A stretch of 56,306 bases of DNA, from contig JBBITI010000019.1 in assembly GCA_037440885.1 (NCBI GenBank), positions 1 to 56,306 of the forward strand, written 5' to 3'. The position numbers and the translations under genes are program-made. The number at the start of each line of letters is the position of its first letter. Position 1 is the stretch's first letter. The notes under the pieces were generated by a model. The model was given only the letters and a program-made list of their open reading frames with translations, did not search any database and had not been told where the DNA came from. Shown piece after piece: positions 2 through 49,521 of the stretch. Source of the stretch: Dehalococcoidales bacterium. GTDB taxonomy: Bacteria > Chloroflexota > Dehalococcoidia > Dehalococcoidales > UBA2162.

Positions 2-508
2 GTACCGATTCATGGAGAATACCGGCACCTCCACCTCCACGGCAGACTTGCCGAGTTGGTAGGAGTAGCCCCGGAGAATATCTTTATTCTAGAAGACGGG
101 GATGTGCTGGAATTAAGTCCTCAGGGCGGCCGGAAGACTGAAAAAGTATCCGCCAGCCATGTTTATGTTGACGGGTTAAGTGTAGGCGACATAGACAGCG
201 TCATTCTGCGCGACCGAAAAACACTATCAAAAGACGGTATTGTCATGGTGGTGATCGCCTTGAACAGGCAAACCGGCAAACTGGTCGGCCGTCCCGACAT
301 TACATCACGGGGTTTCATAGACAGTGACGAATCCAAAGACATGATTGAAAAAAGCCGAGACCTGGTCGCTAGAGTCGTCGACCATGGCAGCGAACAAGCA
401 GCCGATTGGGGTTATGTAAGTACGAAAGTCAAAGATTCATTGTCCAGATTCTACTATGAGCAAACACGACGCCGGCCGATGATACTGCCTTTCATGGTAA
501 GCGTTTAA
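2..508 (+). CDS. rnj: Ribonuclease J, C-terminal part (5' end lies outside the window)
   Basis: The frame is open from base 2: VPIHGEYRHLHLHGRLAELVGV...NIFILEDGDVLEL, followed by an RNase J-type C-terminal domain. The track ORF starting at 56 is only an internal TTG. Confidence 0.75.
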   Translation, partial: VPIHGEYRHLHLHGRLAELVGVAPENIFILEDGDVLELSPQGGRKTEKVSASHVYVDGLSVGDIDSVILRDRKTLSKDGIVMVVIALNRQTGKLVGRPDITSRGFIDSDESKDMIEKSRDLVARVVDHGSEQAADWGYVSTKVKDSLSRFYYEQTRRRPMILPFMVSV

Positions 509-530
509 TCAAACTAAAGGGATAACTATA

Positions 531-2801
531 ATGGCACGCAAGAACGCCAGGGTAAGGAATAAACCACGTCCGCTATGGATCCGCTTCTTACGTTTCTGGT
601 TTCGCGTGATTCGCTTTTTCTTCATCCCCCCGGGACTCTTCATCACACTGGCAGCAGCAATTGCCGGTGTCACCTGGTGGCAATGGATAAACATCACCAC
701 CTGGGTTACAAACACTGTAAATACCATCCTGGATATTTTCGGTTGGGGTTTGATCTTCTTATTTCTAGCCATCTTTACAATCACGATACTGGCGATCCGG
801 CGCCGTTTGTCAGCCCTGTGGTACGGATGGCGTTACTGGCTGGCGATCATCGTTTTTATGTTTGCCGCATGGGGGATCCTGGCTTTCTTTGAACTCGGCG
901 GCTTCATCGGTATGGGAGTAATCGGCACGCAGAACTTCATCGGAGGACTGCGGGTCTTCGGAATTATCGTGATCGGCATCATCCTATTAGCACCAATCCC
1001 TTCCTGGAGATTAACACACCGGGTGGCTTCGGGAGCAGTAAACCAGACCAGGAGATGGCGAGCCGCCAGCCCGTCTTTACCCGGCATGAGAACCCAAGAG
1101 CGCGGTTCTGATTTCCGTCCGACCGCTTCACCTCAGAAAACGAAGGATCCAACCGGTAAACCGGAACCATATCAAGTAGCTCCAGTTAAAGCAGAATCGT
1201 CGCGTAACAGCGAGGAAAGACCAAATAAAGAAGAGCTGAAACAGGTCGCCCAGGAAGTTTGGAAAAAATACGGGGAATCACCTTCCACCCTGGTAATTGA
1301 CGGATGGAAACTGCCGCCAACCGACATATTGGATACGTCACCGGAAGTCGTGTTCAGTCAGGCAGACAATACCCGGAGAGCCAGGCTCATCGAGGAAGCA
1401 CTGGAGAGCTATGGTGTTGAAGCTAAAGTTGTCCAGATTAATACCGGACCAACGGTCACCCAGTTCGGGGTCGAACCCGGTTGGGACCGTAAAATGCGCG
1501 AGTTCAAGGAGAAAGACCGCGACGGCCATAACCGCGTGCGCCAGGAAGAGATATCAAAAACCCGGGTAAAGGTGGAACGGATTAATTCCCTGGCGAATGA
1601 TCTCGCATTAGCCCTAGCCGCACCCACAATCCGCATCGAAGCTCCCATCCCCGGACAATCTCTGGTAGGCATCGAAGTCCCCAATACCGTTTCTACCAGT
1701 GTTACTTTACGCGGGGTAATCGAGACCAGCACTTATCAGAAGATGGTAACCAAATCCAAATTAGTCATCGCCCTCGGGAAAGGTGCCGGTGGCGAAGCTG
1801 TCGCCGGGGACCTGGCGCGCATGCCCCATCTGCTTATTGCAGGAGCAACCGGCAGCGGTAAAACAGTCTGCCTGAATACAGTTATCTGCTCACTCCTCCT
1901 AGCAAATACACCTTATGACTTGCGTTTTGTTCTGATCGATCCCAAACGGGTCGAGTTGACCTCATATAACAGCATTCCCCATCTGGTAGCTCCGGTTATC
2001 GTAGAGGCCGAGAAAGCAGTCGAGGCTCTGAGGTGGCTAGCCCAGGAAATGGACCGCCGTTACCAGAGACTACAGGGATCCGGAGCGCGCAGTATTGACG
2101 GCTACAACAAGACCCGGCAGGGAGAACAAAAAATGCCGTACCTTGTCCTGGTAATCGACGAATTAGCCGACCTCATGATGCAGTCCGGTGACGAGGTTGA
2201 AAGAATACTGTGTCGCCTTGCCCAATTATCCCGGGCTGTGGGTATCCACCTGGTAGTAGCTACCCAGAGGCCGTCGGTCGACGTGATTACCGGATTGATA
2301 AAAGCCAACTTTCCCACCCGGATCAGTTTTGCGGTTAGTTCTCAAGTAGATTCCCGGACCATCCTTGACGGGGCCGGCGCAGAAAAACTGCTGGGTAAGG
2401 GAGACATGCTTTACATGCCCCAGGAAGCATCCAAGCCAAAAAGACTACAGGGGTGCTATGTTTCCGATACCGAAATCGAAAGGCTGGCCTATTTCTGGAA
2501 CAACCAGAAGCGGGATAGTCCATCACTGAGGATTGATGCAGTACCGACTGCAGGCAAAGCGATCCCTTCCGGCGGCTCACTCAGACCTACCTCGACTGAC
2601 GACCCCCTCATGGAGGAAGCCCGGATAATCGCCGCCGAACATCCTCAGTTATCAGTCTCCTATCTACAACGGAAATTACGCATCGGTTACAACAGAGCCG
2701 CCAACATCGCAGAAAAATTGCAGCAAGAGGGTTTCGGACCAGAAAAACCGGGCTACGGCAGGCGCAGCACCACTGACGATGATGCGCCAGAAGAAATCTA
2801 A
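531..2801 (+). CDS. ftsK: DNA translocase FtsK/SpoIIIE
   Basis: 756 aa. N-terminal TM segments and a Pro/Ser/Lys-rich linker. Motor domain with Walker A GATGSGKT and LVIDELADLM, plus a C-terminal gamma wHTH (SYLQRKLRIGYNRAA). RBS AAGGGA lies upstream. Confidence 0.95.
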   Translation: MARKNARVRNKPRPLWIRFLRFWFRVIRFFFIPPGLFITLAAAIAGVTWWQWINITTWVTNTVNTILDIFGWGLIFLFLAIFTITILAIRRRLSALWYGWRYWLAIIVFMFAAWGILAFFELGGFIGMGVIGTQNFIGGLRVFGIIVIGIILLAPIPSWRLTHRVASGAVNQTRRWRAASPSLPGMRTQERGSDFRPTASPQKTKDPTGKPEPYQVAPVKAESSRNSEERPNKEELKQVAQEVWKKYGESPSTLVIDGWKLPPTDILDTSPEVVFSQADNTRRARLIEEALESYGVEAKVVQINTGPTVTQFGVEPGWDRKMREFKEKDRDGHNRVRQEEISKTRVKVERINSLANDLALALAAPTIRIEAPIPGQSLVGIEVPNTVSTSVTLRGVIETSTYQKMVTKSKLVIALGKGAGGEAVAGDLARMPHLLIAGATGSGKTVCLNTVICSLLLANTPYDLRFVLIDPKRVELTSYNSIPHLVAPVIVEAEKAVEALRWLAQEMDRRYQRLQGSGARSIDGYNKTRQGEQKMPYLVLVIDELADLMMQSGDEVERILCRLAQLSRAVGIHLVVATQRPSVDVITGLIKANFPTRISFAVSSQVDSRTILDGAGAEKLLGKGDMLYMPQEASKPKRLQGCYVSDTEIERLAYFWNNQKRDSPSLRIDAVPTAGKAIPSGGSLRPTSTDDPLMEEARIIAAEHPQLSVSYLQRKLRIGYNRAANIAEKLQQEGFGPEKPGYGRRSTTDDDAPEEI

Positions 2802-2809
2802 ACGGATTC

Positions 2810-3310
2810 TCAGGTGGACTGCTTTCGTCCGATCTTCACAAAGATCAGGATGAATGCGGCTACAACAACAACCAATATACCGATAACCACCCATAACACT
2901 ACCGGTGCGCTTTTTATTCTCAGTTCATAGCCCTGGATCATCTGGTAATCACCTGAGGTGGCAATAATCCGTAGATGCTGGACACGCCGTTGCGTAGTCG
3001 AAGTGGGATGGAAATATACATCGACTAATCGCACATTCCCCGGTCCGAGCGATGGAACCACATCCGGGCTAAACTCAATTGACCAGCCTTCGATAGTATC
3101 CGCGTCGAGCTGTATATTCGTCAGTGCTTCCCGGCCAAAATTTCTCAATTCGAGGGAGTAGTGGTTATCTCTGCCTGCGGATAATTCCAGTTGATAGCCA
3201 GTGTTCACAAAGGACATCACCAACGCATGTTTTTCTTGAGCTGCGGCATTTTGCGGTAGCAGTAGACAAACGAATAAGAGTAGAAAACACCAGATCATTT
3301 TCTGTTTCAT
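2810..3310 (-). CDS. Secreted, C-terminally membrane-anchored protein with a NEW3/CARDB-like beta-sandwich domain
   Basis: Signal peptide MKQKMIWCFLLLFVCLLLPQNAAAQE. Motif LELRNFGREALTNIQLDADTIEGWSIEFSP resembles NEW3 domains (from recall). C-terminal TM helix. Start moved to the ATG at 3310, which gives a normal signal peptide. Confidence 0.5.
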   Translation of the reverse strand: MKQKMIWCFLLLFVCLLLPQNAAAQEKHALVMSFVNTGYQLELSAGRDNHYSLELRNFGREALTNIQLDADTIEGWSIEFSPDVVPSLGPGNVRLVDVYFHPTSTTQRRVQHLRIIATSGDYQMIQGYELRIKSAPVVLWVVIGILVVVVAAFILIFVKIGRKQST

Positions 3311-3626: not shown

Positions 3627-5712
3627 TCTTATGCTTCCTCGGTATTACTTTCAAAGTCTGATAAACGTTGTCCGGTTCCATTTTAGCAGCTTCTTTACTC
3701 GCTGTTGAAAAATCGACCGGGGTAATCGGCACTAACGGTTCTTCCAATGCCCGGCGTAACTCGATAATACGGTCACGCAATAAAGCAGCTCTCTCAAATT
3801 CCAGATTTTTAGCTGCAGTTCTCATCTGATATTCCAGGTCTTTGATCAACCGGGCAATATCGTCTTTGAGGACAGGTATCGGAGCAGCCTCGTATTGAGC
3901 TTTACTATCGGCAACGACTCTTACTCTATCGGTGATATCTTTGATAGCCTTGCGAATCCCTTGCGGCGTTATACCATGTTCCTCATTATACTTTTCCTGG
4001 ATATGCCGCCGCCGTTGAGTCTCCCGAATCGCCCTCTCCATAGACACAGTCATCCGGTCGGCATACATGATGACATGACCGTCCACATGACGGGCAGCTC
4101 GACCCATCGTTTGAATCAGCGCCCCCTCGGAACGCAAATAACCTTCCTTATCGGCATCCAGAATAGCCACCAGCGACACTTCAGGCAAGTCCAGACCTTC
4201 ACGTAACAGATTAATACCTACCACGACGTCAAACACTCCCAAACGCAGGTCACGCAGTATCTCGACTCTTTCCAGGGTAACCACTTCCGAGTGCAGATAG
4301 TGCGTTTTAACGCCCATTTCCTTCAGGTAATCGGCCAGTTCTTCAGCCATCCGTTTCGTCAAAGTCGTGACCAGGCAGCGTTCGCCGCGGGCTACCCGCT
4401 TTTTAATTTCATCCATCAGATCATCTATCTGGCCTTTAGTCGGTTTGACTTCTATTGTTGGTTCCAGCAGACCGGTTGGCCGGACCAGTTGTTCAATGAT
4501 CTGCTGACTGACACGACGTTCGTGGGGGCTCGGGGTAGCCGAAACATAGATAGTTTGTCGGATACGCTGTTCAAATTCTTCAAAACTCAAGGGCCGGTTA
4601 TCGAGAGCGGAAGGCAGGCGGAACCCGAAGTCAACAAGGGTCTGTTTCCGGGAACGGTCGCCACCGTACATACCGTGTATCTGGGGAATAGACATGTGGG
4701 ATTCATCGATAAAAAGCAAAAAGTCATCCGGGAAATAATCGAGCAGCGTCCATGGTGGACTGCCCGGAAGGCGGTCAGTCAGGTGCCGCGAATAGTTTTC
4801 CACTCCAGAACAATAGCCGGCTTCACGCAACATTTCGATATCATAGTTGGTGCGAGACTCCAGTCGTGCGGCCTCAAGCAGCTTATTTTCCTTCTTTAAT
4901 ACCTCCAACCGGTCCCGCAATTCCTCACGAATCGCTTGAATGGCGCGTTCCAGTTTATCTGGAGAAGTGACGAAGTGTTTTGCGGGGTAAATGGACACCA
5001 TATCAAGAACAGCTATCAATTCTCCGGTTAAAGGATCGATTTCCACAATCCGTTCTACTTCGTCGCCAAAGAATTCGATGCGCAGGGCTAATTCGTCATA
5101 GGCCGGTTGTATCTCGATGGTATCTCCTCGAACCCGGAACTTACCACGGGTAAAGTCGATATCATTCCTTTCGTACTGCATATCTACGAGGCGATGCAAT
5201 AGTTTATAGCGATGATAGGTCTCTCCCTTCTTGATAGTCAACACGAACTTGTAATACTCCTCGGGAGAACCCAGTCCATATATACAGGAGACCGAAGCGA
5301 CGATAATGACATCCCTTCTTTCAAACAGGGCACGAGTCGCAGCATGACGCAACTTGTCGATCTCGTCATTGATGTCCGAGTCTTTTTCGATATACGTATC
5401 TGTTTGTGGTAAATAGGCTTCGGGTTGATAGTAATCGTAATAACTGACGAAATACTCAACCGCATTGTTGGGGAAAAAATCTTTGAACTCGCTATAAAGC
5501 TGAGCTGCAAGCGTCTTATTATGACTGATGATCAAAGTCGGTCTCTGAGCTCGGGCGATGACATTGGCCATCGTAAAGGTTTTTCCGCTGCCGGTAACCC
5601 CGAGGATAGTCTGGTATCTCATTCCCTGCATGAGACCAGCGACCAGCTTCTCAACAGCCTGTGGTTGGTCGCCGGTCATTCTAAATTCGGAGGTTAAATC
5701 AAAATCAGGCAT
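3619..5712 (-). CDS. uvrB: Excinuclease ABC subunit B
   Basis: 697 aa. Walker A GVTGSGKT, helicase motifs, and a C-terminal UVR domain ([20 protein letters not shown]). Confidence 0.97.
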
Positions 5713-5768
5713 CTTTTTACCTTATCGACGATAGCCATCTAAGTGGGGCAAAACGGGGTTTATGGCGA

Positions 5769-6398
5769 TTACCGCCAGGGATTCTTCTCATTTGCAGCAG
5801 TAACGATCAGCCGGGCGGCAACGTCGTTGTTGAGATAACGGGTGTTGACGACTAGATCATATAATATCGGATCATCGAAATCTTTCTGGAAAAAACGTTG
5901 TAAGAAGGCACGCCGACTGGCATCGGTTTCCGTGACATATTCAGATGCGCCACTGCGGTCCAACTGTCTTTCCGACATGATTCTGTGTATCCTGTCTTCA
6001 ACAGGGGCAATTACCAGGACATGTAATACCGATTTATTATTACGCAAAATATGCTGGCTGCCTCGCCCCACAATGACAATGTTTTGTTCCAATGCCAGGT
6101 CCTTGACCACTGCTTCCAGAGCAGATATGTATTCCGCATCGTCGAGAGGTTCTTCCCACGTCCGCGAATAGGCACTTTCAATTCTACGGGAACCGGAGAG
6201 TATATTGCGAATGCGCTCAAACAGACCTGGTGGCATTTTTTCTTTTGCTTCAATCTGCTCTTTCGGTCGATTCAGCAAACCAGCCACTTCGGCAATGACC
6301 TGCCTGTCAACATAATCCCCCTGGATTAACCGGGCAACTTCCCGGCCAATCTCATATGCACCACTCCCTGTTAAGCCTCTTAGCGTGATAACCGGCAT
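5769..6398 (-). CDS. Cytidylate kinase-like family protein (P-loop)
   Basis: 209 aa. N-terminal ITLRGLTGSGAYEIGREVA P-loop. Resembles the cytidylate-kinase-like (AAA_33-type) family. RBS AAGGAGAG. Confidence 0.7.
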   Translation of the reverse strand: MPVITLRGLTGSGAYEIGREVARLIQGDYVDRQVIAEVAGLLNRPKEQIEAKEKMPPGLFERIRNILSGSRRIESAYSRTWEEPLDDAEYISALEAVVKDLALEQNIVIVGRGSQHILRNNKSVLHVLVIAPVEDRIHRIMSERQLDRSGASEYVTETDASRRAFLQRFFQKDFDDPILYDLVVNTRYLNNDVAARLIVTAANEKNPWR

Positions 6399-34297: not shown

Positions 34298-36778
34298 TTG
34301 GAGACCAGTTCCGGCCAAAACGCCAGAAAAACGATACAGCTTCCCATCACCGGCATGACCTGCGCCACCTGTGCCGTGACGGTTGCAAAAGGACTGGCAG
34401 AGACACCGGGAGTCTCACGCAGCGATGTGAATTTCGCCAGTGAAAAAGCTACCGTGGAATTCGATCCTAGTAAAGTCGATCTGGCCAAATTAAAAAGCGC
34501 CGTTACCGAGCTGGGTTACAGGCTCGCCACCCGGAAATCGACTTTCCCGGTGATCGGTATGACCTGCGCCAGTTGCGTTGCCCGGGTAGAAAAAACCCTT
34601 GCTGAAGTTCCCGGAGTAGTTTCGGTTGCGGTGAACCTTGCCTCGGAAAAAGCTACCGTCGAATATCTCGAAACCACGTCTATCGCTGAACTGCGACGCG
34701 CAGTGAGAGGTACCGGTTACGACATCGGTCCTGAAACAGCGCTACAGGCAGATCTGTCTACAGCGACCCGGCGAGAGATGAATCAACTCACAGTCCGCTT
34801 TATTGTTTCGGCTGTTACTGCTGCCGTCATCATGGTCATCAATTTTTTACCAGCTTTCGCCGGCAGTACCATCATCCAGTGGGCGCTGGCTACTCCGGTG
34901 CAATTCTGGGCCGGTTCAAGATTTTACCGGGGGATGTGGGGCACTCTGAAACACGGCACGGCGGACATGAATACGCTGGTTGCAGTCGGAACATCGGCTG
35001 CCTATTTCTACAGCGTGATAGCAATCCTTTTTCCCGGATTGTTTACTTCCAGCGGATTGATGACCCATCTGTATTTCGATACTTCCGCTACGATAATCGC
35101 CTTGATACTGCTGGGACGTTTCCTGGAAGCCCGGGCTCGTGGACAGACTTCTGCCGCCATCAGGAAACTAATCGGCCTGCGCCCGGCTACTGCCCGGATC
35201 ATCCGTGACGCTAAAGAAGTGGAAATTCCGGTCGAGGATGTGCAAGAGGGTGATATCCTGATCGTGCGGCCTGGTGAAAAAATCCCGGTTGACGGAATCA
35301 TCCGCCAGGGATACTCCAGTATCGACGAATCAATGATCACCGGAGAAAGTCTGCCCGTGGAAAAAAATGTGGGCCAGCAGGTTATCGGCGCGACAATAAA
35401 TAAAACAGGCAGTTTCCAGTTCGAAGCCACCAAAGTGGGCAAGGATACCATGCTTTCCCAGATTATCCGGCTGGTCGAAGAAGCCCAGGGGAGTAAAGCG
35501 CAGATCCAGCGATTAGCCGATGTGATTGCCAGTTATTTCGTACCGGTCGTTATCAGTATCGCTGTAATCACCTTCGTGATCTGGTACTTCATCGGTCCTC
35601 AACCATCATTAACTTATGCCCTGTTAAATTTTATCGCTGTCCTGATAATCGCCTGCCCTTGCGCCCTGGGACTGGCAACTCCTACAGCAATCATGGTCGG
35701 TACCGGAAAAGCAGCGGAATACGGAATATTGATAAAAAGCGCAGAAACTCTGGAAAAAGCCCACCGTATCAATACTATCCTCATTGACAAGACCGGAACC
35801 CTCACCAAAGGTCAGCCTGAAGTGACTGATATTGTTACCACCATCCCTTACCGTACCGAGGAACTCCTCACACTGGCTGCTTCCGCAGAATATAAATCCG
35901 AACACCCGCTGGGCGAAGCGATTGTCCGGGCAGCCGAAGCAAAAGGTATAACACTTTTGGCTGCAGAGAATTTTGAGGCATTACCCGGACAGGGAGTACA
36001 AGCCGTAATTGCAGGTAAAAAGGTGATACTCGGTAACCTTAACCTCATGCAACAATTCGGAGTCGCGTTAAACGAGGTACAGGATCAAGCTGAAAACCTC
36101 TGGGCACAAGGCCGGACAACGATGTTTATCGGAATTGACGGTAGAGTTGCGGGCATCATTGCTGTTGCCGATAAAATCAAACCGGAAGCTCCAGAAGCCG
36201 TTGCCGCCTTGCATCGGATGGGAATCGAGGTAGGTATAATAACCGGAGACAATTCCCGGGTAGCCGCGACTATCGCCGCTGAGGTCGGTATCGAGCGCGT
36301 CTTCGCAGAGATATCGCCCGAGAAAAAAGCAGCAGAGGTGAAAAAACTACAGGGCGATGGTAAAGTGGTCGCCATGGCTGGAGATGGTATTAACGATGCA
36401 CCGGCTCTGGCTCAGGCAGATATCGGGATTGCTATCGGTACCGGAACTGATGTTGCTATCGAAACCGCTGACATCACTCTTGTCCGTGGTGATTTGAACG
36501 GTATTGCTGCGGCAGTATCTCTGAGTAAACGCACCATGACGACGATCAGGCAAAACCTTTTCTGGGCTTTCGCCTATAACGTGATTCTTATTCCAGTCGC
36601 TGCGGGCATACTGTATTTTATTTTCAGTCATGGCGTACCTTCAGGAGCACGTTTTATACTGGGAGAACATGGTTTTCTCAATCCAATGCTGGCTGCCGCG
36701 GCCATGGCTGCCAGTTCATTAACCGTAGTCGGCAATTCACTCAGATTAAGAAGATTCAAACCCCAAACCATATATTAA
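34298..36778 (+). CDS. copA: Copper-translocating P1B-type ATPase
   Basis: 826 aa, TTG start. Two HMA domains ([18 protein letters not shown]), CPC motif ([11 protein letters not shown]), DKTGTLT, and GDGINDAP. Confidence 0.95.
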
Positions 36779-36796: not shown

Positions 36797-36958
36797 ATGA
36801 AAATCGATCCGGTTTGTAAAATGGAAGTAAACGAAAAAAATCCTCCCGCCACATCAGAATATAAAGGCAAGAAGTATTACTTCTGTGCCGTGGGCTGTAA
36901 ACGGGCTTTCGACAAAGCGCCGGAGAAATATATCGGCAGTATCGAACCTAAAAAATAA
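36797..36958 (+). CDS. YHS-domain (TRASH-like metal-binding) protein
   Basis: 53 aa, so below the track cutoff: MKIDPVCKMEVNEKNPPATSEYKGKKYYFCAVGCKRAFDKAPEKYIGSIEPKK. RBS GAGGTAAAGG. Starts 18 nt after the copA stop. Confidence 0.8.
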   Translation: MKIDPVCKMEVNEKNPPATSEYKGKKYYFCAVGCKRAFDKAPEKYIGSIEPKK

Positions 36959-37022
36959 ACTGGCCGCCGGATGGTTGTGTTATAGATAAAACGTTTGTTA
37001 CTTTAACACCACCGGCAGCCAG
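36950..37022 (-). terminator. Long imperfect hairpin + T-tract, candidate terminator of the glutaredoxin-like gene
   Basis: Arms CTGGCCGCCGGATGGTTGTGTTA / TAACACCACCGGCAGCCAG (about 19 bp, two mismatches and one bulge). Followed on the minus strand by GTTTATTTTT. Confidence 0.4.
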
Positions 37023-37078
37023 AATTACCAGTGCTCTACTGGCTTAAGGTTAGAAAAAAAACGGATATCGATTCTCTT

Positions 37079-37324
37079 TCAGGCTAATAACTCATCCAGT
37101 TTCGCTTGATTGAATCCCACGACCACCTTGTCGTCCACAAGGATCACCGGGACCCCCATCTGACCCGATTTCTGGACCAACTCCCGTGCTTTCTCCCGGT
37201 CCCTGGTTACATCGTACTCGGTAAATGCGATCCCTTTTCGCGAAAGATACTCTTTCGCGCGATGGCACCACGGTCAACTATTAGTGGAATAAACAACTAC
37301 CTTTTTTTGCGCGGCTTGGGACAT
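37079..37324 (-). CDS. Glutaredoxin-like (YruB/NrdH-like) protein with in-frame TGA at the first redox Cys: candidate selenoprotein (U-P-W-C)
   Basis: RBS GGAGG, then 5 nt, then ATG. Translation: MSQAAQKKVVVYSTNS-[TGA 37276..37274]-PWCHRAKEYLSRKGIAFTEYDVTRDREKARELVQKSGQMGVPVILVDDKVVVGFNQAKLDELLA, 81 codons. The reading frame continues cleanly through a single TGA. Confidence 0.75.
37239..37259 (-). promoter_or_regulatory. Candidate bacterial SECIS hairpin
   Basis: mRNA CGCGAAAGA-GUA-UCUUUCGCG is a perfect 9-bp stem. It starts 15 nt after the UGA, and the apical G-U lies about 24-25 nt after the UGA. Confidence 0.55.
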
Positions 37325-37456
37325 ACTTACCTCCAAAAGATATTCTGATTAAATTTTAGCAGAAATAGAAGAGCACTGTTGCCGAGACACTGCCAGCCCA
37401 CTGTAAAAATCGCTTCAACCTCTTGTAAATTTTTTCACAATAATGGACAATATTAC

Positions 37457-37485
37457 TTGACAGTTCTCTATTGAAAGACTAGTAT
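37457..37485 (+). promoter_or_regulatory. Candidate sigma-70-type promoter of pilT
   Basis: TTGACA, 17 nt spacer, TAGTAT. Located about 120 nt upstream of the pilT ATG in an AT-rich spacer. Confidence 0.5.
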
Positions 37486-37504
37486 TTGCACAATTCATGA
37501 CATG

Positions 37505-37603: not shown

Positions 37604-38665
37604 ATGAACATATTCACTCTCCTGGAAGAAGCAAAAGCGCGGAATGCATCGGATTTACATCTTTCAATAAATGCCCGTCCCCTGTTGCGCATAAATGGCA
37701 CTCTTGAGCCCGTGAATGATTTTCCCCTTTTAAATAAACAGGACATGGCAGAAGCTTTTGCCCAGATTGCCACCACTGAAGAACGCGCCCAATTCAATAA
37801 GGAACTTGAACTCGATTTCGGCTATACATTACCCGACGGCACGCGGTTAAGGTGCAGCGCAGCGCAACAACGTGGGGCGTTAAGCCTGGCAATCCGCCTT
37901 CTACCTCCCCGCATACCGACAATTGATGAACTCGAATTACCCCAAATCTGTAAAGATATTGTGATGAAATTACGCGGACTAATCGTAATATCCGGCCCTA
38001 CCGGCAGCGGAAAAACCACGACCATGGCCGCCATGGTACATCACCTGAACAAAGTAGCTACCCGGCATATCTTTTCGATCGAGGATCCCATCGAATATTT
38101 CCAACCGAATATCGACTCGGTCATCACCCAGCGGGAACTGGGACGGGACACGATGTCATTCCCCCAGGCTTTAAAACATGTCCTACGCCATGATCCGGAT
38201 GTGATTCTGGTTGGCGAAATGCGCGATACCGAAACTGCCGCAGCGGCTTTATCCGTGGCTGAAACCGGCCATCTTATCCTGACCACAAGCCATGCCCCGT
38301 ATGCCCCTCAAGCCATCGAAAGGATTATCGATCTCTTCCCACCGTCGGAACGTTACCTGGCTCAATCCCGGCTCGCTTCTTTGCTCGTTGCCGTCCTGTC
38401 CCAGACTCTGGTTCCACGTGCCGATGGTTCCGGTCGTATTGCGGCGGTCGAAATTCTACTAGGAAATACCGCCGTTCGCAGTTTAATACGTGACGGCAAG
38501 ATTTACCAGCTCAGTAATGCCATGCGCACTTATCATAATCACGGCATGATAACACTGGATGAAGCCCTGGTGAATCTGTATACCAGGCGTATCATCGATG
38601 GCAAAACATTATTCGCATATTGCGCCGACACTGACGAGGTGGAAAAACTTCTCAGTAATCGTTAG
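37604..38665 (+). CDS. pilT: Type IV pilus retraction ATPase PilT family
   Basis: 353 aa. Walker A GPTGSGKTTT, Walker B DPDVILVGEMRD, and GHLILTTSHA (His box). RBS GTGAGGA. Confidence 0.9.
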   Translation: MNIFTLLEEAKARNASDLHLSINARPLLRINGTLEPVNDFPLLNKQDMAEAFAQIATTEERAQFNKELELDFGYTLPDGTRLRCSAAQQRGALSLAIRLLPPRIPTIDELELPQICKDIVMKLRGLIVISGPTGSGKTTTMAAMVHHLNKVATRHIFSIEDPIEYFQPNIDSVITQRELGRDTMSFPQALKHVLRHDPDVILVGEMRDTETAAAALSVAETGHLILTTSHAPYAPQAIERIIDLFPPSERYLAQSRLASLLVAVLSQTLVPRADGSGRIAAVEILLGNTAVRSLIRDGKIYQLSNAMRTYHNHGMITLDEALVNLYTRRIIDGKTLFAYCADTDEVEKLLSNR

Positions 38666-47657: not shown

Positions 47658-48105
47658 AAATTATCCCTGATAAAAACGGAAGGTGTCTTGAACTTCCCGC
47701 CCGGTATCCATTAACTTGAACCAAGACAGCATGTGACTTTTATCTACATATCTGCTAGACTAAGGAAACCATGGCAAATATATACGATTGTGATAGATTA
47801 CCAGAGTTTAATTATGCAGGCAACTATTTTCACTAATCACACCTGATCTTAATTCCATGCGGTGAAGGTGTTTCTTTCATAACACGGCATTCCTTACCAA
47901 GAGCGGGATATTTCTCCCGATAGGTCGGCCGGAACCGAATTTATTCGACTTCCCGGCCAGATGGCGGTGCCGGTACGGTTATCGAGGGACAACGGTTCAG
48001 CGACCTCGAAGACATTGTAGAAATCATTGTTAACCGGCACGAAGACAACCTAGTCTACATTTCTTTTACAAGGGGTGATCAGGGGCTGAAAGCCTCAGTA
48101 ACATT

Positions 48106-49521
48106 TTGAGTAATACTGAACTACCCAATAGAAACCCGGAACGGTTGGGCACCGATCCCATCGGCAGACTACTGTTCCGCTTAAGCTTTCCAAGTATCAT
48201 CTCAATGGTCGTGGTATCGCTTTACAACCTGGTAGATACCTTCTGGGTTGCCCGGTTGGGACACGAAGCGATTGCAGCCGTGACCGTGGCGATGCCTTTT
48301 TTTGTATTGTGTATTGCTGTAGGGGCGGGGACCGGGGTTGGCATCAATGCACTGGCTTCCCGAAAATTCGGCGAACGTGACACGGCAACGGCTAACCGGG
48401 TGGCCGGCCAGACTTATTCTTTATCACTGTGTATAGGCATTATATTTCTGCTGATAACGAACCTGTTTCCTCAGCAAATATTAAAACTTTCCGGGGCAAC
48501 CCCCGACGTGATGGTTTTGGCGGAAACCTACCTGCGTACCCTGGGCTGGGGAATGCCATTCTTCTTTTTCAGTATCGCCGGACGGAATGTTTTTCAAGCG
48601 TCAGGCGATGCCGTACGTCCCATGGTCTTCACAATTATTTCCCAGGTGATTAATATCATCCTCGACCCGGTATTGATATTCGGTTGGGGATTCTTCCCGG
48701 AGATGGGGATTGCCGGAGCGGCGACGGCGACAGTAATCGCGACCGTGGTAAGTTCATTGTTAGTCAATTACTGGGTTACATCAAAAACCTCAGCGTATAA
48801 ATTGTCAAGGCGTGATTTCGTGCCCCATTTACCGACTATCAGGGCCATCTACCGGGTTGGATTCCCATCAATGCTGATGGAATCTACCGAGAGTATCGTC
48901 TTTGCAATGTTCAATAACGTCGTTGCCGTTTTCGGCTCCGTCGCATTAGCAGCCGTAGGCATAGCCAGCCGCATTGCCGATCTAGCTTTCATGGTAATCA
49001 TCGGTACAGCCCATGGGTTATTACCGATAGTTGGTTACAGCTTCGGTGCCAGATTATGGTCACGTTTATGGGGTGCCCTTCGCAATGCTTCACTGGCCAT
49101 GGTAGTAATCTTGTCCGTCAATACCATAGCCCTGGTGATATTCACCCCGCAACTCCTAGCTTTATTCACCAAAGACAAAGAGTTGATCGCGATTGCGGTA
49201 CCCGGAATGCGTATATTCCTTTCTACGCTAGTTCTGGTCGGACCTACTATTATGTTCATCACCACGTTCCAGGGACTCGCCAAGGGAAAAGATGCGATGT
49301 TCCTTTCGCTCATCAGGCAGTTCGTTTTTTTCGTACCCGCTCTTTTCGGACTGACCCATATAATGGGAATCACCGGAATGTGGTTGTCAATGCCGATCTC
49401 TGATATCGCCGGAGCGACGGTTGCAGGTCTGTGGCTACTGCGCGAGTACCACCGGCAAAAGAAAGACCCGGCATGGGGTTTAACCAATACCGGGTCAATA
49501 AAAGACCATACAAAAAATTAA
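48106..49521 (+). CDS. MATE family efflux transporter
   Basis: 471 aa, 12 predicted TM helices. N-terminus PIGRLLFRLSFPSIISMVV is typical of MATE. TTG start with no clear RBS. Confidence 0.9.
   Translation: MSNTELPNRNPERLGTDPIGRLLFRLSFPSIISMVVVSLYNLVDTFWVARLGHEAIAAVTVAMPFFVLCIAVGAGTGVGINALASRKFGERDTATANRVAGQTYSLSLCIGIIFLLITNLFPQQILKLSGATPDVMVLAETYLRTLGWGMPFFFFSIAGRNVFQASGDAVRPMVFTIISQVINIILDPVLIFGWGFFPEMGIAGAATATVIATVVSSLLVNYWVTSKTSAYKLSRRDFVPHLPTIRAIYRVGFPSMLMESTESIVFAMFNNVVAVFGSVALAAVGIASRIADLAFMVIIGTAHGLLPIVGYSFGARLWSRLWGALRNASLAMVVILSVNTIALVIFTPQLLALFTKDKELIAIAVPGMRIFLSTLVLVGPTIMFITTFQGLAKGKDAMFLSLIRQFVFFVPALFGLTHIMGITGMWLSMPISDIAGATVAGLWLLREYHRQKKDPAWGLTNTGSIKDHTKN

Follow-up and report, generated by a model that had tools for sequence, protein, structure and literature searches.

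A predicted selenocysteine-containing glutaredoxin gene and its conserved SECIS-type hairpin in the Dehalococcoidia

The prokaryotic selenoproteins verified by experiment include glutaredoxins with a UxxC active site (PF00462) (Kim et al. 2011, cited by PMC13188914 and PMC9312934), and a 2005 report on the Sargasso Sea described ten glutaredoxin selenoprotein genes (PMC1088965). In Clostridium oremlandii OhILAs and in the Sargasso Sea forms, a PF00462 protein carries selenocysteine (Sec) in place of the first cysteine (Cys) of the CxxC motif, Cys-containing homologues are widespread, and the selenocysteine insertion sequence (SECIS) hairpin lies inside the coding sequence, directly downstream of the UGA. 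A gene with the same layout was located on the minus strand of contig JBBITI010000019.1 of a Dehalococcoidales bacterium (assembly GCA_037440885.1), the 56,306 nucleotides of which are referred to here as the window. This gene, designated grx (37079..37324), is very probably a real, intact selenoprotein gene that is decoded with Sec and specifies the active site U17-P-W-C20; we base this on comparison of its sequence with those of its relatives. It differs from the C. oremlandii glutaredoxin in lineage (Dehalococcoidia, Chloroflexota) and in subfamily (PDB 4tr0 was matched at E 3e-11, PDB 7c10 better), and from the known Sec-glutaredoxins as a whole in having its own near-invariant SECIS sequence and, in about half of its loci, a linkage to genes for a YHS-domain protein and CopA.

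The coding sequence of grx comprises 81 codons, including an in-frame TGA at codon 17 (37276..37274), and ends in an ordinary TGA stop (37081..37079). The Shine-Dalgarno sequence GGAGG (37334..37330, minus strand) was read 5 nt upstream of the ATG (37324..37322), and the same layout of GGAGG, spacer, and ATG was present at two related loci (L001 and L003). The translation is MSQAAQKKVVVYSTNS*PWCHRAKEYLSRKGIAFTEYDVTRDREKARELVQKSGQMGVPVILVDDKVVVGFNQAKLDELLA, in which the internal TGA stands in the context S-U-P-W-C, with 64 sense codons between it and the terminal stop. Alignment to homologues, and to the CPHC of PDB 7c10, placed the redox motif U-P-W-C at codons 17-20 (37265..37276) and the predicted Sec codon at the first Cys of CxxC. 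The initial annotation, which was made from the sequence alone, had described the GGAGG, the start at 37324, the single TGA, and the 64 further codons, all of which were read in the sequence; its statement that only two out-of-frame open reading frames (ORFs) had been called here was borne out by the ORF list (37092..37277, minus strand; 37106..37348, plus strand). Gene finders missed grx because of its internal TGA.

With U changed to C, the grx protein matched NCBIfam TIGR02196 (GlrX_YruB) at 105.3 bits (cut-off 88.55; profile positions 1-73 of 74) and Pfam PF00462 at 72.9 bits (cut-off 22.9; positions 1-60 of 60). A search with the protein returned 797 homologues at E<=1e-5, and the best solved structure was PDB 7c10, a glutaredoxin (E 1.8e-18). 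The gene almost certainly encodes a Sec-containing, YruB-type glutaredoxin-like protein, a new member of the established Sec-glutaredoxin family, to which it adds a Dehalococcoidia clade. The Cys forms of the YruB family (TIGR02196) share the length and layout of the window protein, which is 64-75% identical to the Cys-type Dehalococcoidia members; they carry CxxC, have no functional need for a hairpin and, unlike grx, are mostly without one. NrdH-redoxin (TIGR02194; PDB 4fiw, 1r7h) likewise has a small glutaredoxin-like fold with CxxC, but was a second-tier match (52.5 bits, below the cut-off of 85.75), and grx has no nrdEF context. The UXX-star proteins, or 'Distant Grx-like protein 1' (NF041114, NF041211, NF041212), also have a glutaredoxin-like fold related to TIGR02196. 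In UXX-star proteins, Sec is found three residues before the stop, and family 1 has UxxT and two Sec residues (PMC13188914). Membership of grx in UXX-star was rejected, given that it has a single TGA, in UxxC, and that its C-terminus reads ...DELLA-TGA, followed by 17 sense codons. Against the UXX-star models grx scored a borderline 67.1 bits vs. 66 with NF041212, the broad one, for which reason membership had been considered, and 45.6 vs. 72 and 41.9 vs. 100 with the specific ones; positions 67-70 of the NF041212 profile, at its C-terminal end, were unmatched in the grx protein.

To collect loci related to grx, GTDB species genomes and contigs from metagenomes were scanned, with local tblastn as the second step. 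At the column of codon 17, TGA was present in 47 independent loci (the window and 46 others, all of the latter with TGA and hairpin), while TGC or TGT was present in 115 relatives; one scan gave Cys at this column in 66 relatives, the other in 115. P18 and C20 were invariant across 40 distinct Sec-type genes. The proposal that TGA occupies the position of the first redox Cys thus withstood comparison with homologues. Most TGA-type loci belonged to the Dehalococcoidia or Chloroflexota, and those derived from genomes were all from metagenome-assembled genomes (MAGs) of these groups, including a complete 1.73-Mb chromosome (CP070645.1, L016). A scan of the window and flanks for Sec/Cys pairs gave clean pairing for grx and SelD only; other matches were antisense or upstream noise.

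Could the TGA be an error of sequencing or assembly for TGC or TGT? Resequencing had been raised at the outset as a possible source of refutation, and the objection is excluded by the 47 independent assemblies, all of which carry TGA. A genome-wide reassignment of the codon (code 4 or 25) would be in keeping with the protein database, where many of the closest homologues have W in place of the first Cys (T-W-P-W-C), just as under a code in which TGA is Trp. At three loci (L001, L002, and L003), however, the DNA has TGA at the codon where the database has W (P0001, P0002, P0003, P0005, P0007-P0010, P0015, P0019, P0020, and P0023), and true TGA stops were also rendered as W: P0001 ends in ...MNW, and P0005 carries a false tail of 20 residues. 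Because the DNA has TGA and genuine TGA stops have likewise become W, the database W is a translation artefact that flags TGA; these genes seem to have been called with a code in which TGA is Trp. Within the window TGA terminates 9 of the 41 long ORFs, as well as grx itself, which also argues against reassignment. We attach practically no probability to either error or reassignment.

Another explanation is that grx is a pseudogene or truncated remnant, in which translation terminates after 16 codons and the rest of the frame is decaying. Standard-code gene callers do skip the gene, and a decayed paralogue is found in the same window. In the 47 TGA-type loci, however, the 64 downstream codons were conserved, with abundant synonymous change and without further stops or frameshifts. 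Among 40 distinct TGA-type genes, 29 conserved codon columns, located before and after the TGA but not in the hairpin, each showed 2-6 synonymous codons. Because the whole frame is under purifying selection, a pseudogene was excluded, as the initial annotation had argued from the family-typical residues after the TGA; we regard this explanation as extremely improbable. The decayed paralogue (47814..48060, plus strand) provides an internal contrast. Its frame opens with ATG at 47814 and has TGA (47844) at the same active-site column, but the active site reads U-S-stop-F (TAA at 47850), a second TAA follows at 47880, and the frame shifts after VPV near 47975. A hairpin of the GTG...TCA type was partly retained, and identity to any intact copy was about 40%. 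This second Sec-type glutaredoxin-like gene is a true pseudogene, and intact grx shares neither its two TAA stops nor its frameshift nor the destruction of its active site.

Fourteen nucleotides separate the TGA of grx from a hairpin (37259..37239, minus strand) with a 9-bp stem and a GUA loop, CGCGAAAGA-GUA-UCUUUCGCG. The fold, together with a comparison of 41 sequences, defined a conserved 8-bp core (37258..37251 paired with 37247..37240, loop 37250..37248). The 21-nt hairpin by itself had a minimum free energy (MFE) of -11.0 kcal/mol; the 8-bp core gave -8.6 and a 71-nt segment -22.5. According to the published model (the Zhang and Gladyshev bSECISearch model, as summarised in PMC13188914), a bacterial SECIS (bSECIS) has a loop of 3-9 nt, a stem of 4-16 bp, and 16-37 nt between the UGA and the loop; one of the first two bases of the loop is G, usually with G or U after it, and the MFE does not exceed -7.5 kcal/mol. 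The window hairpin lies within every one of these limits: its loop is 3 nt, its stem 8-9 bp, its loop start G-U, its MFE -11.0 kcal/mol, and its UGA-to-loop distance 23 nt. The 3-nt loop is the minimum allowed. Thus the perfect 9-bp, GUA-looped stem that had been proposed to begin at the 15th nucleotide after the TGA was recovered by folding, the estimate of about 24 nt from UGA to the apical G-U was close to the 23 nt measured up to the loop G, and the designation of the hairpin as SECIS-like agrees with the published model. It has no bulged U of the type seen in E. coli fdhF, and binding of SelB to it is a prediction. An Rfam scan of 36900..37500 returned chance matches only, Rfam having no curated bacterial SECIS family and none that matched this hairpin. 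The minimal stems of two other loci, L014 and L125, had MFE values of -7.1 and -7.2 kcal/mol when taken alone, and their 60-nt folds ranged from -12 to -20.

The first 18 Sec-type genes examined retained on average 7.8 of the 8 core pairs, and 43 of the 47 Sec-type genes retained 7 or 8, as compared to about 4 of 8 on average in Cys-type genes (Mann-Whitney p = 9e-20). Across the 41 sequences, 97.9% of core cells were paired (<=62.5% in slid controls), with 11 G-U changes, and the loop G27 and U28 were invariant. Four hairpin codons were each represented by a single codon in the 40 distinct TGA-type genes (23, GCG; 25, GAG; 26, TAT; 27, CTT), so that synonymous variation was zero in 4 of 6 hairpin columns vs. 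0 of 29 columns outside (Fisher p about 3e-4). Codon 24 was AAA or AAG, paired as A-U or G-U; codon 28 was TCG, but TCA where codon 23 was GTG, a compensatory change from C-G to U-A in which an Ala-to-Val replacement is coupled to a synonymous Ser change.

Several observations weigh against reading grx as a Sec-decoded gene, and they concern both the hairpin and the machinery needed to use it. As a fold alone, the 71-nt segment was modest (z = -2.2), and 4 of 200 shuffles folded as well; it is because of the comparative data that the hairpin is not attributed to chance. Two-sided covariation was found in one of the eight stem pairs and four pairs never vary, so that classical covariation by itself is thin. 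Four Cys-type genes with the same AKEYLS peptide retain 6-8 of the 8 pairs, so that shared ancestry explains some of the hairpin signal. The thin covariation would favor a hairpin that is not a SECIS at all, being either a by-product of the AKEYLS peptide and of shared ancestry or some other RNA element (for stability or attenuation), and so would the identical hairpins of the Cys-type genes L022 and L097, which have no TGA, and the lack of a matching family in Rfam. That explanation does not account for why synonymous sites are fixed in the hairpin alone, when codons of equal conservation vary outside it, nor for why pair retention follows the TGA and declines in those Cys forms that stand closest to the Sec clade. 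It is further opposed by an unrelated stem at the same position in two TGA-type loci (L125 and L134), and by the loop G, which is the wobble base of the Glu codon GAG and is invariant in Sec forms, the Cys-type L008 having GAA. We consider a non-SECIS hairpin very unlikely.

The remaining points of this kind concern the Sec machinery. No tRNA-Sec was found by ARAGORN in the window (which holds no tRNA of any type), in 18 related loci, or in L170, a locus of the sister assembly GCA_964642665.1. Homology searches located no selA, selB, or selD in the window, in the sequence flanking TGA-type loci, or in about 9 kb by which the sister assembly extends past the right end of the window, and ARAGORN and homology searches thus agree with the initial annotation, which had noted the absence of all four genes from the window. 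A split-ORF scan and a Sec/Cys homology scan of the window detected no second selenoprotein gene. When 1.25 Mb of loci were searched by tblastn with SelA, SelB, and SelD from E. coli and Dehalococcoidia, the only Sel matches were at L020, a Cys-type locus (DATKYY010000063.1, from a Dehalococcoidales MAG); remaining SelB matches were rejected as ordinary translation GTPases in unrelated taxa. At L020, a Cys-type grx (331..570) is followed by YHS (586..768, minus strand) and copA (786..3266, minus strand), and beyond copA by selD (3368..about 4410, minus strand), selA (4528..5907), and the start of selB (5917..); the selD has an in-frame TGA (4366..4364) in the context GAG-U-ASK. Clusters of selA and selB were present on three further Chloroflexota contigs (L087-L089), and on two of these a SelD-like gene was adjacent. 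Because these three long SelA contigs are without grx, the adjacency of grx and sel genes at L020 is not general. SelA had >8000 homologues, and named sources among the matches listed were Dehalococcoidia or Chloroflexota. Dehalogenimonas has selC, selA, selB, and selD (PMC4918011), and Dehalococcoidia MAGs with 46-49 selenoprotein genes are recorded in BSepDB (PMC13326102). Judging from gene content, the Sec trait is present at the class level, in related Dehalococcoidia only.

It is at this point that decoding of the TGA as some residue other than Sec must be weighed. The hairpin might promote read-through by a near-cognate Trp or Cys tRNA, or Cys might be inserted via the Sec pathway, for example in a lineage that has lost its selenium supply or is without one. 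Comparison of the loci shows translation of the codon but does not identify the inserted residue, and the machinery was found in related Dehalococcoidia only. Set against this, the TGA coincides exactly with the catalytic Cys, a position at which a Trp would leave no activity; the hairpin has the features of a SelB-type SECIS, with a loop that invariably opens with G-U and with the correct spacing (PMC13188914); selenoproteins and selA, selB, and selD are abundant in the class (PMC13326102); and experiments in other bacteria have verified the same family as a selenoprotein (PMC13188914). Decoding as another residue therefore seems improbable, if somewhat less so than the explanations considered above.

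If grx is decoded with Sec, as we favor, the steps would be those of the established bacterial Sec pathway. The ribosome would start at the ATG at 37324. As the UGA at 37276..37274 enters the A site, SelB-GTP, anchored at the hairpin by its apical G-U loop, would be carrying Sec-tRNA(Sec). Sec would then be inserted at UGA-17 in place of termination, and translation would run on for 64 codons to the ordinary TGA stop, after which there is no hairpin. The predicted product is a thioredoxin-fold thiol-disulfide oxidoreductase of 81 residues with Sec as the attacking residue; its selenolate would attack substrate disulfides or mixed disulfides, and C20 would resolve the intermediate as a selenenylsulfide. 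In this scheme we infer Sec insertion, SelB binding, the Sec machinery of the window genome, the reductant, and the substrate.

Among Cys forms, those closest to the Sec clade (80-86% identity) varied in how much of the hairpin they kept: 8 of 8 core pairs in L022 and L097, 7 in L104 and L108, 6 in L008, and 5 in L010. Nested as they are among Sec forms, they look like recent Sec-to-Cys conversions with the hairpin in graded decay. Repeated switches of this kind would provide a natural series from which to estimate the rate of SECIS erosion after the need for the element has gone, and the mosaic of Sec and Cys forms is a clean illustration of Sec-Cys interchange over time. Change in the opposite direction is suggested by L125 and L134, metagenome contigs that form a separate cluster and have a different stem, GCCAAG-AGUUA-CUUGGC, at the SECIS position. 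Their nearest neighbours were Cys forms, including those of Armatimonadota MAGs, and the sequences suggest an independent gain of Sec from Cys, by way of a different stem. A further TGA-type grx, L154, falls outside the main clade and has a doubtful hairpin. At L116 (Ga0315314_1035968) the hairpin is intact and the active site reads NSYLSLC in frame, with TPTCPC in another frame; a +1 and a -1 indel flanking a TGT codon would account for this, in a gene that is either misassembled or degenerate.

Nothing in grx alters how Sec decoding is understood at present; what the gene changes is annotation. A real redox enzyme of 81 residues is absent from the gene calls of the window genome and of dozens of related MAGs, and a large protein database holds these genes only in corrupted form, with W for Sec and with stops read through. 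A well-supported clade with a sharply conserved SECIS is added to the known Sec-glutaredoxin family, and W at a catalytic Cys column becomes a usable flag for hidden selenoproteins.

The neighbours of grx offer a functional hint that can be tested. Convergent with grx are a gene for a small metal-binding protein with a YHS domain (36797..36958, plus strand; Pfam YHS, 59.6 bits) and a gene for a CopA-type heavy-metal P-type ATPase (34298..36778, plus strand; Pfam E1-E2_ATPase, Hydrolase, and two HMA domains), both of them conserved neighbours, the latter not part of the recoding device. A PilT-like ATPase gene (37604..38665) is divergent from grx, with FtsZ and FtsA beyond it. Domain annotation reproduced the orientations reported earlier for copA, YHS, and pilT relative to grx. 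Of the 30 Sec-type loci with sufficient downstream sequence, 15 had a convergent YHS gene no more than 2.5 kb away, vs. 9 of 104 Cys-type loci, and CopA was co-located with grx in 14 Sec-type loci. This linkage suggests a possible copper-related role in thiol redox chemistry for grx. A stronger claim, that the subclade of the window gene is a Dehalococcoidia-specific Sec-glutaredoxin dedicated to copper handling, is speculative, and we think it rather unlikely. Were it true, the selenolate could keep the copper-binding cysteines of CopA and YHS reduced, or could handle Cu(I)/Cu(II) directly, and a functional link between selenium and copper that is undescribed for glutaredoxins would follow. 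The MAG CAVUYC01 (MFD05942.bin.2.118) carries two TGA-type grx paralogues, of which one (L004) adjoins YHS and copA and the other (L017) is in a different context.

Upstream of grx, a weak sigma-70-like promoter match (TTTACA-18-TACAGT, 37400..37429, minus strand) agreed with the consensus at 9 of 12 positions, which does not count as evidence of function, and a scan for terminators gave none. Elsewhere in the window, a MatE gene is a single ORF of 471 amino acids (48106..49521), as compared to two pieces (368 and 89 amino acids) at 4525..5900 of L170 (GCA_964642665.1), where the sequence is also interrupted by a run of N near 12.8 kb. Based on the split MatE gene and the run of N, these two assemblies of the organism differ locally.

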